Part shown: in pieces, positions 3,514-38,157 of the stretch
Numbering within the stretch: the stretch's first letter is position 1
Layout of the letters: each line of letters begins with the position of its first letter
Notes under the pieces: generated by a model
The model's input: the letters and a program-made list of their open reading frames with translations, nothing else
Databases searched by the model: none
What the model was told of the DNA's origin: nothing
DNA from: Candidatus Saccharimonadota bacterium
Lineage (GTDB): Bacteria > Patescibacteriota > Saccharimonadia > Saccharimonadales > Saccharimonadaceae
Direction: 5' to 3'
Assembly: GCA_017519305.1 (NCBI GenBank)
Contig: JAFWSN010000001.1
Location: forward strand, 120,296-184,295
Length of the DNA: 64,000 nucleotides
Made by a program: the position numbers and the translations under genes

Positions 3514-4322
3514 TGCTCGACCTCGCCATTGTTGGAGCTGGCCCAGCAGCGCTTTCGGCCGCAATTTACGCCGCACGCGCCGGGCTAAAAGTGCGTGTTT
3601 TCGAAAAAGGTAGCATGGGCGGAGCACTCGCTCGCATCGCCAGAATCGAAAACTACCCAGGCTTTATGGGTGCCGGTTCAGAGCTGGCTGATAAACTTAA
3701 GACTCAGGCGGCGGAATTTGGCGCCGAATTCGAATATGGCGAATGTCAAAAAGTTGAATACGGCTCGCTTACAATTGATGGCGAAAAAGTTTCTGCTCGC
3801 GCAATTTTGATTGCTACTGGCTCTGGTCCGAAATCTCTAGGAATCGAGGGAATTACGAAGCCGATTTCTTACTGTGCAATCTGTGACGGTGCGTTGTATG
3901 GCGGCAAGCGTCTTGCCGTGGTTGGCAGCGGTAACTCCGCTTTCCAAGAAGCCGCACATCTTGCTGAAATCGCTGAATCGGTTACGATTTTTGCTCACGC
4001 CAAAGTTAAGGCCGAATCGTATTTGATCAAAAATCTTCCAGACAACATTACTATAAAAGAAGATAATAATTTGACTGCTACAGAACTTAATCAATTCGAT
4101 GGTATTTTCGTCTTTATCGGCAAGAGTCCAGCTACGGATTTTCTCGATAAAACATTATTGACGAACGATGGATATATTAAAACCAACAACTATATGACCA
4201 GTGTTACTGGCGTGTTTGCTGCCGGTGACGTACGCGATGGCAGCGTGCAGCAAGTTGTGACCGCTGCCGCTGATGGTGCCAGTGCCGCACTCAGGATAGT
4301 GGACTTCTTAAGAGAAAAATGA
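3513..4322 (+). CDS. trxB: Thioredoxin reductase (compact)
   Basis: GAGPAA, ENYPGF, CAIC redox motif, GSGNSA, GVFAAGDV. Confidence 0.93.
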   Translation: MLDLAIVGAGPAALSAAIYAARAGLKVRVFEKGSMGGALARIARIENYPGFMGAGSELADKLKTQAAEFGAEFEYGECQKVEYGSLTIDGEKVSARAILIATGSGPKSLGIEGITKPISYCAICDGALYGGKRLAVVGSGNSAFQEAAHLAEIAESVTIFAHAKVKAESYLIKNLPDNITIKEDNNLTATELNQFDGIFVFIGKSPATDFLDKTLLTNDGYIKTNNYMTSVTGVFAAGDVRDGSVQQVVTAAADGASAALRIVDFLREK

Positions 4323-31608: not shown

Positions 31609-32322
31609 ATGGACACGACACCATATCAAGAATTTGCGAAGGCCAAGCTCGGCTTCGCTTTTAATGACATTGAGCTATTAGTTACCGCCTTAACGCACCG
31701 TAGCTATGTAAACGAGCACAAAGCTAGCGTGCATGACCACAACGAACGCCTAGAATTCCTTGGCGACGCCATTCTCGAAATGGTATCTTCAGATTTCTTG
31801 TATCGCAACTACAACGAACCTGAGGGTATCATGACTTCTTGGCGCGCCGCCCTTGTGCGTACCGAATCAATCGGTGCTGCCGGCAAAGAACTTGGCTACG
31901 AGCCACTCGTCCGTCTTTCTAAAGGGGAAAAACACGGTTCAGAGCGTGCCCACGATGTGATTCTTGCGGACTGCTTTGAGGCTGTAATCGGCGCGATTTA
32001 CTTGGATCAAGGTTATGAAGCTGCCAAAGATTTCATTTATAAACATATTTTGAATAAAATTGACGAAATTCTTGAAGATGAGTCTTGGCGCGATCCAAAA
32101 TCATACTTCCAAGAATTGGCCCAGAAAAATGCCGGTGTTACTCCGGTCTACCGTACACTCAAAGAAGAAGGCCCAGACCACGACAAGAACTTTACTGTTG
32201 GTGTTTATGTTGGCGACGAATTGAAGGGCGTAGGGAACGGCCATTCTAAGCAAGAGGCTCAGACCGCCGCCGCTAAAGAGGGCGTTAAAAGTTATAAAGC
32301 TGCTGAAAAAGCCACAAAATAG
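31609..32322 (+). CDS. rnc: Ribonuclease III
   Basis: ALTHRSY, NERLEFLGDAIL, DCFEAVIGAIYLD, dsRBD with SKQEAQTAAA. Confidence 0.97.
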   Translation: MDTTPYQEFAKAKLGFAFNDIELLVTALTHRSYVNEHKASVHDHNERLEFLGDAILEMVSSDFLYRNYNEPEGIMTSWRAALVRTESIGAAGKELGYEPLVRLSKGEKHGSERAHDVILADCFEAVIGAIYLDQGYEAAKDFIYKHILNKIDEILEDESWRDPKSYFQELAQKNAGVTPVYRTLKEEGPDHDKNFTVGVYVGDELKGVGNGHSKQEAQTAAAKEGVKSYKAAEKATK

Positions 32323-32363
32323 TAAAGTCTTGCAAAAACCACAAAAAGTAGTATAATTGCCTC

Positions 32364-32636
32364 ACGATTGAGGTGCTATATCATATAGAAAAACAGGGTT
32401 CCCTCCCAAATTTTTCGACAACAGATTCACCCTAATCGCGAACCTAACAAAATCATCGGCCATTACTGCCAAAACCAACACCAAATATATATTCCAATTC
32501 ACTATGGTTCATCTTCGAGCCTTATCGAAGAGTATCCCTTGGCCGATTGATTAACCCATGAGGGTTGTTGGCTGGCAGGCCAACAACCCAATTACCATTA
32601 CCCCCAGCCCCCCTATGGGTTGGGGGCTTCTAAGTT
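32364..32636 (+). ncRNA. Candidate structured non-coding RNA or attenuator (unassigned)
   Basis: TTGCAA-16-TATAAT (32330-32357) upstream, several long helices, GC-rich terminal hairpin, no long ORF. Confidence 0.5.
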
Positions 32637-32702
32637 TTTAAAATGCTATTGTTTTTTGAATTTTGCTAACGTATAATTTTACTAAGTAAGTGGAGTTATA
32701 AA

Positions 32703-35700
32703 ATGCAAGATTATCAAGTAGTCTTGGTTAGCTTGGATTCTTTTTTGGGATTCTTGCGCTGGGGTTTCGCGTTCTTATTATTGTTTTTAGCCTTGTTTAT
32801 GATGTATAAGCAGCATGGTAAACCGGGTGAAAAAGCCAGCTGGAAATTCTTTGTTGCTGCAGTTGTTGTAATCCCGTTTTTAATTTTCTCGCTTGTGAAG
32901 ATTAACCGCCCAGTCAACACTCCGGCCAGCAGCGACGAGATCAGTGTCGAGGATAATGTTCCAGTGCCTAAAACGAGCGCGAATAGCTCCACTCCAACCT
33001 CGGAAGATAACTCCAGCTCTGGCGCTAATTATTCCGGCATTTATTCTGGTAGCCAAAATAACTCCAATAACTCTTCTACTAATCCAAGTACTCCAGATAA
33101 TTCGGGTACCCCAGATAATCCAAGCACTCCAGATAACCCGAGCCAGCCAGATACTCCAGACGAGCCGGACGAACCAGTAGAATATACAGTCACGGTCAAC
33201 CACTACAAACAGGCCATCGATGGCTCATATGGTTCGATGCCGGATGAATATGAATCACTTACCGGCCACACTGGCGACGAACTTAACCCAGCAGTCAAAA
33301 CTTATACCGGTTTCAAAACTCCAGAAGCGCAGACCATTACTCTAGAAAACGATAACGTAACGGTCAATTATTGTTACGAACGCAACACCACGACCATTGT
33401 TTTCGACCCAGACTACGAAGAAGCTGAGGGCGAGATGGCTGACATTGTTGTACCATACGAGGCCACTATTATTATTCCATCCAGTGGTTATACCATGGAT
33501 GGTTATCTTCCTGATTATTGGGAAGCTTACGACGAGGACGACGAGTGGTATGATGATTACAATTTTGGCGATGAATTTACCGCTGAGTCGGAAGAAACCA
33601 CCCTTTATTTCTATCTAATTTGGGAACGAAAGGCGTCGACCATCAGTAATTCTAACGGCTCTGTCAATATCAAGATTAGTGCGACTTTGAATGGCGCCAC
33701 GAATTTTGGCAAATATAACGGCACGCCAAACTTCGACGAGATCGACAGCGAAGTCGATATCAGAACTGGCGGCAATACTCCGACTTATATCTGGAAAGAC
33801 GGCGAAAATGCATATTGGTGGAGCGAGGTGACCCCTTCAATCACGAACGCCAGGAATATGTTTGGTGGCGCAGAGATTGCCAATATTGATTTGTCCGGCT
33901 TCAAGACGACTGATACCACTGATATGTCTTATATGTTTGCAGAATCCAAAGTTACGAGCGTAAACTTCGGTGATTTCAACACTGCAAAAGTAACGACTAT
34001 GACGGAGATGTTCTCCAACTCTACTATTTCCTCGATTGATTTCGGCACCAAATTCAATACCGGGAAGGTAAAGAATATGTCTAAGATGTTCGCCTTTGAC
34101 GCATCGGAGGCAGGAGAAAGTAGCCGATTAACATCGATAGATCTTTCCTCTTTTGATCTTAGTAGCGTAACAACGATGGCCAACATGTTTAATGGTTGCT
34201 CAAATCTCCAGCAGGTTACTTTTGGTAACAACGTTGACACGTCCAAGGTACAGTCGATGGCAGGCATGTTTAGGGGCACGTCGTCACTCAGTACCATTGA
34301 CCTCTCGAAATTCACGACACCGGCGCTCACCAATATGAATAGTATGTTTAGGGATTCTGGCGTGACCACGCTTGATTTAAGCACGTTTGACGTTGATGGC
34401 GTAAAGAACTTCGGTAGTTTACTTCATAATGCGATGAATCTCACTACCGTCGATTTTAGCGGTTGGATAATTACTCGTTCAATCTTAGACCTCAATGGCA
34501 CGGCCGGGATGTTCTCTCAAAACTCCAGCCTGACCACTATTTATGTTGATGATAATTCTGACTTCTCTGGGTTAGAGAGAAACGATTTACTTTTCTCTAC
34601 TATGTCAACCAACCTTGTTGGCGGCAACGGTACGATTTGGTCTGGAAATGACTCAAGCGTCTGGACTAATGTCTATGCAAGGGTCGATGATCCAATCCAT
34701 GATCAACCTGGCTGGTTTACGCTAAAAAATCCAGACACGGTCACGTTTGATGCTGGAGAAGGTTCTGCTTCTTATAATTCATACAACTATATCCCTGGCA
34801 CCACATACGGCGCCTTCCCAACGGTCACCCCGCCGCAGGGTAAAAAGTTCGTGAATTGGTCTACTTCTAACGAAAATAATTTCCCAGTAACAGAGTCTAT
34901 GACGGCCGAGTCTGGCACGATTTATGCTTGGTACAAGGACCTTGAGGCAAACGCCAGACTAAGAGCGGGCGCTATCGCCGAAGCTTATCAAGCGCTAAGC
35001 TATGATGGTACATCTTACCCTACTTCATTTAGTCGTAGCGACACCGCGCCAAGCTGTTCTCAAACGACCTGTATCTCTATGGAATCAGACGATTCGGATC
35101 ATGAGATTATTGGTTTCCGCACGCGTGACGCATTCTATTACTACACGACAGGCGCAAAGGTGTTCTTACCGGTAAATTCTAGCGACTTATTCTACTTCGA
35201 CAGTGATAATCCAAATACTGCACTAACATCAATTGATATGTCTGGCTTTGATGCTTCCGAAGTGCAAACTATGGATAGCGCCTTTAGGGCCCTCACGAAA
35301 CTCACCAGCTTGAATCTTAGCATGCTCGACACAAGCAATGTTACTAATATGAATACTATGTTTGACCAAGACAGATCGTTGACGAGCCTCACTCTTGGCG
35401 GCAGCTTTACGACCGAAAATGCGGTTTATATGAATGGATTCTTGGCCTGGTGCACTAGCTTAAGCTCCTTTGATGCTTCCCAGATCGATACCTCTTCGGC
35501 GACGAGCCTCGGCGGTATGTTTAGCTATTCTGGCATCACTAGCCTAGACCTCTCCAGTTGGGATGTCAGTAACGTTGAGACTATCAGCGGTATATTTAGT
35601 GGCATGAATGATTTGACGACCGTCAATATGAGCGGTTGGGGCGAGAGCAAAATAACGAATCTTTCTGGCCTGTTCGGCTGGCTGCCATCTCTCGTAGAAG

Positions 35701-36971
35701 TTGACCTGGCCGGCTTTGATACTTCAAACGTCACGAATATGTCTAGCATGTTCGAGCATAGCTACGGCGAATCGGTGCTAACGACAATTTATGTTGACGA
35801 ATCATTCTCCACGGAAAGCGTCACAAATGATGCTCGTATGTTCTTTGCTACGACCAATCTGGTTGGTGGCGAAGGCACGGCATTTGCGACCGATGCGCAT
35901 GAGGATAGTTTGTATGCCCGCATTGATAATCCGGACGGCGGCACGCCTGGCTACCTAACGCTGAGAACCGCCACCATAGAATACGCTTCAGACTTCACGA
36001 CTGCCTTTTCCTCGGGCATCCTAAAGTCAATTACTCGTTCGGCGACATTGCCAGATAATTGTCCGAGTAGTAGGTGCAGAGACATATCGTCATCTAATTC
36101 TCAGACGCCGCTCTATGCTTGGCAAGTCGACGATAAAGGATATTATTATACAAAAGCCAGCAAAATCATTGCTCCAGTCAATATGAAAAATATGTTCGCC
36201 TTCTTCTCGGTGCTAGAAACAACGGATATATTCCAGTATCTAGACGTCAGCAATACTACATCTATGGAGGGGTTGTTCCGCAATTCTACCAAACTGACAA
36301 CAATTGACCTGTCGACGTGGAAAACAGAGAGCCTAGTAACAACGGACAACATGTTCTCATCGGCCATTAGCCTTGAGCGTGTGGTGTTCGGTGCTGGTTT
36401 TGATACTAGCAAAGCAACAAGCATGAAGTATATGTTTAGCGGAACGAATTCGCTTAGCGAAATCGACCTATCCCAGATCGAGACGCAATCGGTTACCGGT
36501 GACGGCTTCACTGGCATGTTTAACTCTACTGGTCTAGAGAGAATCGATCTTAGTACTTTTAGTACAGCCGGGGGGCCAACCGTTCTGTCAGTCCTATTTA
36601 CTAATTCATTAAACACAAAATATATCAGTCTGGCCGGATGGGACCTTTCCGGGGTCACGAGAATCAATCAGCTATTCTCTGGACTCACCTCCTTGGAAGA
36701 GATAGATTTTTCAGTGGTAAATGCTAAAAACGTTACTGATATAAGTGCGATGTTTAAGGGTTGCACGAGCCTAAAGACTATTTACGTGACGGAGAATCCA
36801 TTTGATCTCGACAAAATCACGAGCTCCAATGAGGTATTCTATAATACGCCGCAACTAAAAGGTGGTGATGGTACGACGTGGAGCAGTGAGAATGCTAACT
36901 TTAAAAGGTATGCCAGAATCGACGATCACGCAAATAACGTTTGGGCGTACTTCACCAAAAAAACCGAATAG
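32703..36971 (+). CDS. Large BspA/DUF285 LRR surface protein (1422 aa)
   Basis: Two N-terminal TMs, TPDNP linker, MucBP-like and InlB-B-like modules, three LRR blocks each ending in an L(V/K)GGxGT...YAR(I/V)D cap. Confidence 0.85.
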   Translation: MQDYQVVLVSLDSFLGFLRWGFAFLLLFLALFMMYKQHGKPGEKASWKFFVAAVVVIPFLIFSLVKINRPVNTPASSDEISVEDNVPVPKTSANSSTPTSEDNSSSGANYSGIYSGSQNNSNNSSTNPSTPDNSGTPDNPSTPDNPSQPDTPDEPDEPVEYTVTVNHYKQAIDGSYGSMPDEYESLTGHTGDELNPAVKTYTGFKTPEAQTITLENDNVTVNYCYERNTTTIVFDPDYEEAEGEMADIVVPYEATIIIPSSGYTMDGYLPDYWEAYDEDDEWYDDYNFGDEFTAESEETTLYFYLIWERKASTISNSNGSVNIKISATLNGATNFGKYNGTPNFDEIDSEVDIRTGGNTPTYIWKDGENAYWWSEVTPSITNARNMFGGAEIANIDLSGFKTTDTTDMSYMFAESKVTSVNFGDFNTAKVTTMTEMFSNSTISSIDFGTKFNTGKVKNMSKMFAFDASEAGESSRLTSIDLSSFDLSSVTTMANMFNGCSNLQQVTFGNNVDTSKVQSMAGMFRGTSSLSTIDLSKFTTPALTNMNSMFRDSGVTTLDLSTFDVDGVKNFGSLLHNAMNLTTVDFSGWIITRSILDLNGTAGMFSQNSSLTTIYVDDNSDFSGLERNDLLFSTMSTNLVGGNGTIWSGNDSSVWTNVYARVDDPIHDQPGWFTLKNPDTVTFDAGEGSASYNSYNYIPGTTYGAFPTVTPPQGKKFVNWSTSNENNFPVTESMTAESGTIYAWYKDLEANARLRAGAIAEAYQALSYDGTSYPTSFSRSDTAPSCSQTTCISMESDDSDHEIIGFRTRDAFYYYTTGAKVFLPVNSSDLFYFDSDNPNTALTSIDMSGFDASEVQTMDSAFRALTKLTSLNLSMLDTSNVTNMNTMFDQDRSLTSLTLGGSFTTENAVYMNGFLAWCTSLSSFDASQIDTSSATSLGGMFSYSGITSLDLSSWDVSNVETISGIFSGMNDLTTVNMSGWGESKITNLSGLFGWLPSLVEVDLAGFDTSNVTNMSSMFEHSYGESVLTTIYVDESFSTESVTNDARMFFATTNLVGGEGTAFATDAHEDSLYARIDNPDGGTPGYLTLRTATIEYASDFTTAFSSGILKSITRSATLPDNCPSSRCRDISSSNSQTPLYAWQVDDKGYYYTKASKIIAPVNMKNMFAFFSVLETTDIFQYLDVSNTTSMEGLFRNSTKLTTIDLSTWKTESLVTTDNMFSSAISLERVVFGAGFDTSKATSMKYMFSGTNSLSEIDLSQIETQSVTGDGFTGMFNSTGLERIDLSTFSTAGGPTVLSVLFTNSLNTKYISLAGWDLSGVTRINQLFSGLTSLEEIDFSVVNAKNVTDISAMFKGCTSLKTIYVTENPFDLDKITSSNEVFYNTPQLKGGDGTTWSSENANFKRYARIDDHANNVWAYFTKKTE

Positions 36972-37004
36972 ACAAAATCAACAGAGATAAAACCGCCTCC
37001 CAGA

Positions 37005-37033
37005 TTGACATAAGCGCTAAAACGTGCTATAAT
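37005..37033 (+). promoter_or_regulatory. Consensus sigma70 promoter
   Basis: TTGACA-17 nt-TATAAT with TG extension. Confidence 0.8.
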
Positions 37034-37079
37034 TAAAGGAGTATGTCATGGCTCAGGAAACTGAAGGGAGGTGGTTTTT

Positions 37080-37613
37080 ATGGCATGCAAATGGAACGAC
37101 GGTATTGATCGGGAAGTCGACTTTAAAAAGGAGTTTGACGGGGATCATATCTATGATGTGATTCCATCCGGAGAAATCGATGATGACTTGGAGGTGGGGG
37201 AAAAACTTTCCGCTCCAAGGAAAATCAAGAAGGTGGTCTCCGACCCGACACGGTTGCCGCTTGCAAATCTCGACAAAGAGGAAAGGCGTCAGTATTACAG
37301 ATTACTGATAGATATCCTCGACGCCGGGGTGCGCTACAACCACATCCTTAATGGGCTGACTGGTCCAGAACCGGCCGAACGAAGGATGAGGCAAAGCTAC
37401 GGTCTAGAGGGCCGCAGGGCCGCAATAGCGGAAAAGGATCGTCTATATAAGATGATTCGAGATAAAGTAGAGAGATTCAATAGAGTATTCTCAAAATATC
37501 TCGAGCAGGAGCTTACTCTTGAGTGGGTAGTCCTGCACGCTAGAAAACGGCACGTCGAGACGATAAAAAAGACCCGCGAAGCGGGCGAGATTATTCCATT
37601 TTGGAAAATCTGA
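37080..37613 (+). CDS. Hypothetical protein
   Basis: ATG after AAGGGAGGTG; own promoter and downstream hairpin (37620-37653); no recognised motif. Confidence 0.65.
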   Translation: MACKWNDGIDREVDFKKEFDGDHIYDVIPSGEIDDDLEVGEKLSAPRKIKKVVSDPTRLPLANLDKEERRQYYRLLIDILDAGVRYNHILNGLTGPEPAERRMRQSYGLEGRRAAIAEKDRLYKMIRDKVERFNRVFSKYLEQELTLEWVVLHARKRHVETIKKTREAGEIIPFWKI

Positions 37614-37704
37614 CATCTTAGCCCTAGGCAGCCAGCCTGGGGCTTTATTTTTTTAAAGAAATAGTGTATAATACAAAAGTTATTAATTTTAAGGAGAAAA
37701 TCCA

Positions 37705-38157
37705 ATGCTCGCGATTCGCATGCAACGTAATGGCCGTGCACATCTTCCGATGTACAGGATAGTCGTCCAAGAAGCGCAGCGTCACCCTCTTTCAGGTCGT
37801 GTCGTTGCTGAGGTCGGCAATTACAACCCAGCAACCAAAAAGGTCGTCTTAGACTCTGAAAAGGTCGAATTCTACCTTAAAAATGGTGCTAAACCATCTT
37901 CTCGTGTCGCCTTCGTCTTTAAGAAGAACGGCGTCAAACTTCCAGATTGGTACAAAGAAGCTCCTCAGAAGTCTGCCAAAGGCAAACACCAAGACAAGCT
38001 TCGCAAGAACCAACCAAAAGAAGAGCCAGTTGAAGAAGCTCCAGTTGCTGAAGAAGCCCCAGTTGAGGCTCCAGTCGAGGAAGCTCCAGCAGAAGCCCCA
38101 GCCGAAGAAGCTGCTCCTGCCGAAGCTCCAGCTGAAGAAACTCCAGCCGAAGCCTAA
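37705..38157 (+). CDS. rpsP: 30S ribosomal protein S16 with acidic Glu/Ala/Pro tail
   Basis: MLAIRMQRNGR, YRIVV, VGNYNP, GAKPS. Confidence 0.95.
   Translation: MLAIRMQRNGRAHLPMYRIVVQEAQRHPLSGRVVAEVGNYNPATKKVVLDSEKVEFYLKNGAKPSSRVAFVFKKNGVKLPDWYKEAPQKSAKGKHQDKLRKNQPKEEPVEEAPVAEEAPVEAPVEEAPAEAPAEEAAPAEAPAEETPAEA

Follow-up and report, generated by a model that had tools for sequence, protein, structure and literature searches.

The 380-nt gap between rnc and a large adhesin gene in this genome appears to house a previously uncatalogued, folded RNA of ~270 nt that is kept in only four sister species of Candidatus Nanosyncoccus. In our view it is probably a stand-alone, highly structured non-coding RNA (ncRNA) gene of ~265-290 nt, whose product would work in trans by way of its fold; that there is a transcript, where it ends and how abundant it is we infer from sequence. 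By kind, it would belong to the orphan structured bacterial ncRNAs, combining the lack of an Rfam match with strong covariation and two candidate pseudoknots. Patescibacteria are ultra-small and depend on a host, and to our knowledge few ncRNAs other than housekeeping ones have been described in them; literature searches found neither a description of such an RNA nor anything on structured RNAs of Saccharibacteria/CPR. Throughout, the window denotes the whole stretch of DNA that was analysed (64,000 nt, C10:120296-184295 of genome G000, the assembly being 97% complete and 786 kb long); feature coordinates are collected in Table 1.

Table 1. Predicted RNA elements and neighbouring genes, in window coordinates
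Feature	Position	Strand	Description
rnc	31609-32322		Pfam Ribonuclease III + dsrm (Pfam search)
Sigma-70-type RNA promoter	32330-32357: -35 TTGCAA 32330-32335, 16-nt spacer, -10 TATAAT 32352-32357	+	10/12 matches
P1, 5' hairpin domain	32362..32441	+	pair probabilities 0.8-1.0
P1 core helix	32365-32370 / 32433-32438, then 32372-32375 / 32428-32431	+	CGAUUG/UAAUCG (first segment)
P1 apical part	32388-32393 / 32411-32416 and 32396-32398 / 32405-32407	+	C-rich loop UUCCCU
P2 domain	32451..32552	+	closing helix 32451-32462 / 32540-32552, 12 bp and one bulged U; variable interior
P2 interior hairpin	32512-32518 / 32525-32531	+	
PK1 5' partner CUGCC	32466..32470	+	3 nt past P2 5' strand; complement of GGCAG 32574-32578
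J2/3 AACCCAU, PK2 5' strand (alternative helix or second pseudoknot)	32553..32559	+	pairs with 32615-32621
P3 hairpin	32562..32589	+	11 bp plus U·G, loop UGGCAG; pair probability 1.0
PK1 3' partner GGCAG in P3 loop	32574-32578	+	
J3/4 single-stranded linker AAUUACCAUUA	32590..32600	+	consensus A(C/U)UUACC(A/U)U(U)A
P4 C-rich hairpin CCCCCAGCCC / GGGUUGGGGG	32601..32626	+	loop CCCUAU
PK2 3' strand AUGGGUU in P4	32615-32621	+	
3' tail CUUCUAAGUUUUU	32627..32656	+	second U run 32651-32656; terminator hairpin absent here
Window-specific hairpin	32672-32683 / 32689-32700 (32672..32700)	+	12 bp, 3 of them G·U; outside the conserved RNA
Adhesin gene	32703..36971	+	1422-aa DUF285 / BspA-type LRR surface protein (Pfam)
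ORF of ~180 aa	37071-37613		3' of adhesin; homologous to relatives' pre-rpsP ORF
rpsP	37705-38157		3' of adhesin; Pfam S16

A sequence-only reading of this gap had already proposed that a promoter there serves a structured RNA of ~270 nt belonging to no assigned family, a proposal now borne out by the conservation of the promoter, by covarying helices and by the lack of any match in Rfam. The promoter that it named is present, with transcription predicted to start at ~32363-32365, and the closing helix of P2 and the perfect hairpin P3 both lie where it had placed them. Furthermore, CTGCCA at 32466-32471 is, as it stated, the exact complement of the P3 loop, and the two strands that it suggested as an alternative pairing (AACCCAT and ATGGGTT) are indeed complementary. 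The terminal GC hairpin that it described at 32601-32628 is present too, is C-rich and in fact spans 32601-32610 / 32617-32626. Three sister species keep the helices, along with the loop contact and the alternative pairing.

Considered as a single sequence, the region folds well. Positions 32360-32640 of the + strand reach -89.6 kcal/mol with z = -6.2 relative to 200 dinucleotide shuffles (z = -4.3 for the - strand), and the main helices have base-pair probabilities of 0.9-1.0. The z-score alone is not distinctive, because 8 of the 75 intergenic gaps of at least 200 nt in this genome also reach z <= -6, most of them holding tRNAs and terminators. Likewise, the chance of finding a 6-nt loop complement (p ~0.03) or a 7-nt alternative pairing (p ~0.06) in one sequence makes each of them unremarkable, and both gain weight only from the comparative data. 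As a separate observation, strongly folding gaps with z of -5 to -9 occur elsewhere in the genome (C10:42263-42621, C10:316597-316930, C10:367744-367989, C10:266709-267040 and C10:403127-403449), some of which carry tRNAs plus long perfect hairpins; the printed folds of two of them are without a tRNA, one featuring a hairpin of ~27 bp (C10:367744-367989) and the other G/C-rich hairpins (C10:403127-403449).

Relatives of the RNA were beyond the reach of BLAST: with the region as query, 61 and subsequently 369 genomes of the same genus yielded only chance matches inside ORFs and promoter look-alikes. In the regions downstream of rnc from 30 genomes of the genus and 80 metagenome contigs, with rnc up to 91% identical, neither BLAST nor nhmmer detected a homologue, and R1, a covariance model derived from the window sequence alone with its predicted fold, detected none in the first 100 of those loci. 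The orphan status suggested by BLAST and by this survey was overturned by the whole-genus covariance-model search, in which R1, run over the 369 genomes, gave full-length matches in the genomes G181 (46.4 bits), G223 (46.3 bits) and G164 (26.9 bits). A second model, R2, was made from the four sequences for the 3' domain only, since the model alignment, at 438 columns, was too wide for a full-length one. R2 scores the four genomes at 83-111 bits and the next best at 27 bits, its marginal matches in G261 and G011 being ordinary terminators and not homologues.

The distribution that emerges is very narrow: 4 of the 369 species of the genus and 0 of ~400 other genomes of the order, a set spanning 255 genera in which no further member was found. 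A pattern scan of 185,579 species genomes returned the three relatives and four chance matches that fail the model; with a looser pattern, viral contigs gave 65 pattern matches, none of which fits the model, and BLAST against phage genomes gave no match. The relatives found by the pattern scan are Candidatus Saccharibacteria / Candidatus Nanosyncoccus MAGs from herbivore guts, and the three are the closest known to this genome, with rnc proteins 95-98% identical.

All four copies of the RNA sit directly after rnc, behind one common promoter: TTGC(A/C)A-N16/17-TATAAT, with the spacer AAAA(A)CCNCAAAA, precedes each of the three homologues. In G223 a terminator lies between rnc and this promoter, and the RNA would therefore form a transcription unit of its own. 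In G181, G223 and G164 the conserved tail, whose motif is kept as CU(U/C)CUAAGUUUU or UACUAUGGUUUU, leads to a canonical hairpin and U6 terminator and then to a well-formed promoter for the next gene, which is rpsP in G181 and an ORF of 167-199 aa followed by rpsP in G223 and G164; a terminator hairpin after the tail was not found in the window. The ORF of G223 and G164 evolves fast, with 22-29% identity between species. No ORF is shared among the four RNAs, and the small ORFs, including one of 46 aa on the - strand that is hydrophobic, have no Pfam match and are not conserved. Taken together, a promoter, terminators in three species, the lack of an ORF and compensatory changes are what is expected of a stand-alone ncRNA gene. 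It is because the relatives have a terminator, a new promoter and different genes after the RNA that we favour such a gene.

Two observations on the wider neighbourhood may be added here. The stretch from rnc to rpsP is a hot spot of gene content across the genus (window 32323-37704; loci L006-L114 and L128-L131), holding differing small ORFs, an adhesin or nothing depending on the species, and the pre-rpsP ORF of ~170-200 aa shows 22-29% identity between sister species as against 95-98% for the rnc protein. In addition, a promoter near-identical to that of the RNA, CTTGCAAAAACCACAAAATATAGTATAAT, occurs in another species (L115, G082:C14, ~3761-3788; 27/29 identical to 32330-32357), where it drives an unrelated gene for a 317-aa protein; the spacer AAAAACCACAAAA may thus be a promoter module that is reused within the genus.

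Evidence that the region is maintained as an RNA comes from the comparison of its helices. Among the four species the RNA as a whole is 54-63% identical; rnc nucleotides are 82-90% identical and their four-fold degenerate sites 49-66%, from which it follows that neutral sequence has largely turned over. Independent folds of the four sequences nonetheless give one shared four-domain architecture. P2 forms a helix of 12-14 bp at an equivalent place in all four of them, around an interior of ~30 to 100 nt, and the P1 core helix is found in four of four species, as is P4, while the apical extension of P1 and its C-rich loop are absent in G164. Changes on both sides of a pair affect 11/12 positions in P2, 8/11 in P3, 4/9 in the P1 core helix, 3/7 in PK2 and 1/10 in P4, where three further changes are one-sided, making 27 compensatory positions in total. 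The changes in P4 include the double change from A-U to C-G at position 6 and a change from G·U to G-C at position 7. Pairing is canonical in 206 of 208 cells, as against 29-47% when the partners are slid, and 13 G·U pairs compared with 2 A·C mismatches identify the + strand as the RNA strand. A count on the model alignment of the 3' domain agrees (97.6% paired versus 39-57% when slid, with 11 double-change pairs); 0 of 500 shuffles are as good, and RNAalifold concurs. The motifs CUGCC (CUGCU in G223), GGCAG, UUACC and GCCCCC are invariant amid the variable sequence, and in the four-sequence alignments of J3/4 UACC and its flanking bases do not vary.

These counts come with a caveat of scale: they rest on n=4 sequences, too few for R-scape-type statistics. 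The MAFFT full-length alignment mis-aligns the 5' half of the RNA, which led to placement by hand there; for each sequence P1, P2 and PK2 were hand-placed on conserved anchors, and the model was the template to which the alignments made by the tools were fitted.

Both long-range contacts gain from the comparison. For PK1, the 5' partner is invariant in three species and the CUGCU of G223 preserves a G·U pair, while GGCAG, on the 3' side of the P3 loop, is unchanged although that loop and the P2 interior vary in length and sequence. The contact is one that we infer from the conservation of both partners and not from covariation, the single change being one-sided. For PK2, equivalents in an unchanged register are GUCCAAG/CUUGGGC in G181, GCCCAU/AUGGGC in G223 and GCCCG/CGGGC in G164, and the n=3 compensatory changes (A-U to G-C twice, U-A to A-U once) would amount, as a rough estimate, to a support of ~p = 0.03. 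The outer half of P4 has a compensatory change of its own, from A-U to C-G. Since PK2 and outer P4 each carry such changes, both helices seem to be selected, and the arrangement could be either an H-type pseudoknot, in which J2/3 pairs with the P4 loop and inner 3' strand alongside outer P4, or two alternating states. As far as the comparison of sequences can tell, the alternative pairing makes more sense within a stand-alone RNA, where it would be either a second pseudoknot or a conformational switch.

Our proposal for how the RNA works runs as follows. A strong sigma-70 promoter of its own, directly after rnc, would drive an RNA whose fold comprises P1 as the 5' hairpin, P2 as a long helix that closes a variable interior, and two further hairpins, the perfect P3 and the C-rich P4. 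The CUGCC inside P2 would pair with the GGCAG of the P3 loop, so that P2, PK1 and P3 could stack, and J2/3 would pair with the loop and 3' strand of P4 to give an H-type pseudoknot with outer P4 or an alternative state. The folded RNA, together with its conserved single strands (the UUACC linker, the GCCCCC loop and the 3' tail), would then act in trans by binding a protein or another RNA, rather than serve as a leader of the gene downstream. A role that depends on the fold is favoured because the RNA is almost fully structured, has two long-range contacts and offers only short conserved single strands. Within this trans-acting role we would tentatively put a protein- or ligand-binding scaffold first and, as a rather doubtful second, a base-pairing regulator; RNAduplex comparison of the RNA with the rnc and nudix translation starts identified no target. 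The very narrow distribution argues against a core role, and a cis leader, a substrate or decoy of RNase III, or no function at all are less likely than action in trans.

A bolder version deserves mention, speculative as it is and in our judgement unlikely: a compact double-pseudoknot RNA of very recent origin, or recently acquired, in the ancestor of the four Nanosyncoccus species, which might work through its fold as a decoy or substrate whose stacked P2-PK1-P3 helix engages the neighbouring RNase III, as a small ribozyme or as a ligand sensor. If true, it would be a rare, datable instance of a complex functional RNA coming into being within a minimal genome.

We regard as improbable the idea that the RNA is a cis-acting leader, a riboswitch or attenuator in which the choice between P4 and the J2/3 pairing sets read-through into the downstream gene, here the adhesin. 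This had been one of two suggestions of the sequence-only reading, the other being a novel sRNA, and it can draw on the conservation of two mutually exclusive pairings, on the lack of a terminator hairpin between the RNA and the adhesin in the window and on the broken spacer of the local promoter (TTGAAT-9-TATAAT). On the other hand, a constant class of downstream gene, the hallmark of such leaders, is not found: depending on the species it is the adhesin, rpsP or an unrelated-looking ORF, and three of the four species place a canonical terminator and a well-formed promoter before it. The adhesin itself occurs in this genome alone among the four RNA-bearing species and has no orthologue in the three relatives. 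The GC hairpin fares no better in the part given to it, that of terminator in a terminator/antiterminator switch. An intrinsic terminator or attenuator has its GC hairpin directly before a U tract, whereas 8 nt separate the end of P4 (32626) from the start of the U run (32635), which makes P4 a poor intrinsic terminator; the terminator scan did not call P4, and the true terminator of the relatives is a separate hairpin further downstream. P4 is thus a part of the conserved fold and not the terminator, and the RNA, judged by its setting in the relatives, would not be a dedicated regulator of the adhesin.

What the adhesin gene seems to be, instead, is a genome-specific insertion that now separates the RNA from the next gene's conserved promoter, with loss of the RNA terminator. 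We conclude this because the promoter, the ORF and rpsP all sit past the adhesin in the window: a TTGACA..TGCTATAAT promoter and then the order of ORF and rpsP are kept after the adhesin stop codon, and the window sequence beyond that stop matches what follows the RNA terminator in G223 and G164. A search for close orthologues of the adhesin found none; its homologues share repeat-domain similarity only, at ~40% identity over ~20% of the query, and their upstream regions are not comparable with the RNA locus. With the terminator lost and the adhesin inserted, this genome alone may allow transcription begun at the strong RNA promoter to continue into the adhesin gene. The local adhesin promoter has its nearest -35-like element, TTGAAT, only 9 nt upstream of TATAAT, and the window-specific hairpin (32672-32700) pairs that TATAAT box with the Shine-Dalgarno GGAG of the adhesin. 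This hairpin is possible only in transcripts that start upstream of the TATAAT box, and it would be predicted to mask the Shine-Dalgarno sequence in read-through transcripts.

Another reading ties the RNA to the enzyme encoded upstream: a stacked P2-PK1-P3 helix of ~28 bp would be a substrate or decoy for RNase III. The RNA adjoins rnc in four of four species, and helices of 12-14, 5 and 10-12 bp would lie end to end if PK1 forms. However, that adjacency may be merely inherited, and the other 365 species of the genus have rnc without such an RNA, which leaves us thinking this quite improbable.

Still less do we believe that the region is non-functional, a fast-evolving spacer whose successive hairpins would be rnc terminators or DNA-level palindromes. 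The abundance of strongly folding gaps in this genome, a region identity close to that of silent sites and the very narrow distribution would all be in keeping with it. Against it speak a conserved promoter directed into the region, the 27 positions with compensatory changes, an excess of G·U over A·C that is strand-specific and hence at the RNA level, and motifs that stay invariant in variable surroundings.

Divergent membership of a known family was considered as well. The gathering scan of the window with Rfam 15 found only 4 tRNAs, and a permissive scan of positions 32250-32750 (501 nt, E <= 10) returned only Atu_C10 at 15.1 bits against a gathering threshold of 60 (E = 2.7), which is noise; the Infernal/Rfam check advised in the sequence-only reading therefore matched no family, and of the homologues after rnc that it advised collecting three were found, with abundant compensatory changes. 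The same reading had set tmRNA and RNase P RNA aside, rightly so, as both sit elsewhere in the genome on another contig: a tmRNA by the Rfam model at C2:13652-14006 (77.7 bits) and RNase P RNA at C2:17160-17487 (227.9 bits). ARAGORN reports no tmRNA in the window or the genome, the one detected with Rfam being atypical enough to escape it.

Two slots in this genome look empty. For SRP RNA, neither RF00169 nor RF01854 has a match in the genome, and when 28 genomes drawn from 7 genera of the order were searched with RF00169, every one lacked a match; the 97%-complete assembly contains no open frame with the DT[AS]GR GTPase motif, and tblastn with a hand-entered E. coli Ffh query gave a best E of 0.5, so that Ffh/FtsY is not detectable and the SRP system seems to be absent from the genome. 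SRP RNA is expected wherever Ffh is present and to be conserved across related species, and its hallmarks are a helix 8 that carries a GNRA tetraloop, and internal loops that are conserved. The RNA was considered as the missing SRP RNA and rejected: it occurs in only 4/369 species, alongside no Ffh/FtsY, and its hairpins are perfect, without helix-8-type loops. For 6S RNA, a rod made from paired 5' and 3' ends with a large central bubble, RF00013 matches neither the locus nor any other place in the genome, and the candidacy of our RNA was dismissed, each of the four folds being a chain of distinct domains in which the 5' end does not pair with the 3' end and no rod forms. That a divergent known family (SRP RNA, 6S, tmRNA, RNase P, T-box, raiA or another ornate RNA) was missed by the Rfam models is consequently hardly credible to us, the apparent vacancy of the SRP and 6S slots notwithstanding.

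We return to the reading that we prefer, a stand-alone RNA acting in trans, and to what it would mean. With genomes of ~0.8 Mb, Patescibacteria can spare hardly any DNA that serves no purpose. The RNA retains its four helices and both long-range contacts while the sequence drifts at the rate of silent sites, which points to selection on the fold. There is a lesson in method, too: BLAST over 369 congeneric genomes gave nothing, and a covariance model made from a single sequence recovered the homologues. The narrow distribution limits the general importance of the RNA, and it also makes two questions tractable: how the RNA arose, and what effect the neighbouring adhesin insertion has.

Comparison with known systems helps to place the RNA. 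In the fluoride, ZTP and preQ1 riboswitches a pseudoknot competes with a hairpin, and our RNA resembles them in that one strand, the 3' strand of a GC-rich hairpin, takes part in two pairings that exclude each other and are both conserved with compensatory changes. It departs from them in that the hairpin lies 8 nt from the U run, that three species have a separate terminator and a new promoter, that the downstream genes are not conserved and that no conserved core of the ligand-binding type was identified. RsaE/RoxS and LhrC are base-pairing sRNAs with C-rich loops in Gram-positive bacteria. Like them, the RNA has an independent promoter and C-rich stretches, namely CCCUCCC, which three species carry in the P1 loop, and GCCCCC, which all four have in the P4 loop or close to it; unlike them, it is mostly base-paired and has two to three times their length, and the C-rich loop of P1 is absent in G164. 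Closest in character are the ornate ncRNAs (raiA motif RNA, HEARO, OLE, ROOL and GOLLD), orphan structured bacterial ncRNAs that came out of comparative genomics. Our RNA differs from these in having no sequence or model match to them, the existing Rfam models having been scanned, in being smaller than OLE, ROOL and GOLLD, in being confined to four sister species as opposed to a phylum or class, and in lacking a recurrent protein-gene partner. Overall, it is like them in being free-standing, with its own promoter and terminator and no ORF, and in uniting multiple helices, long-range or pseudoknot contacts and heavy covariation in a lineage-restricted RNA.
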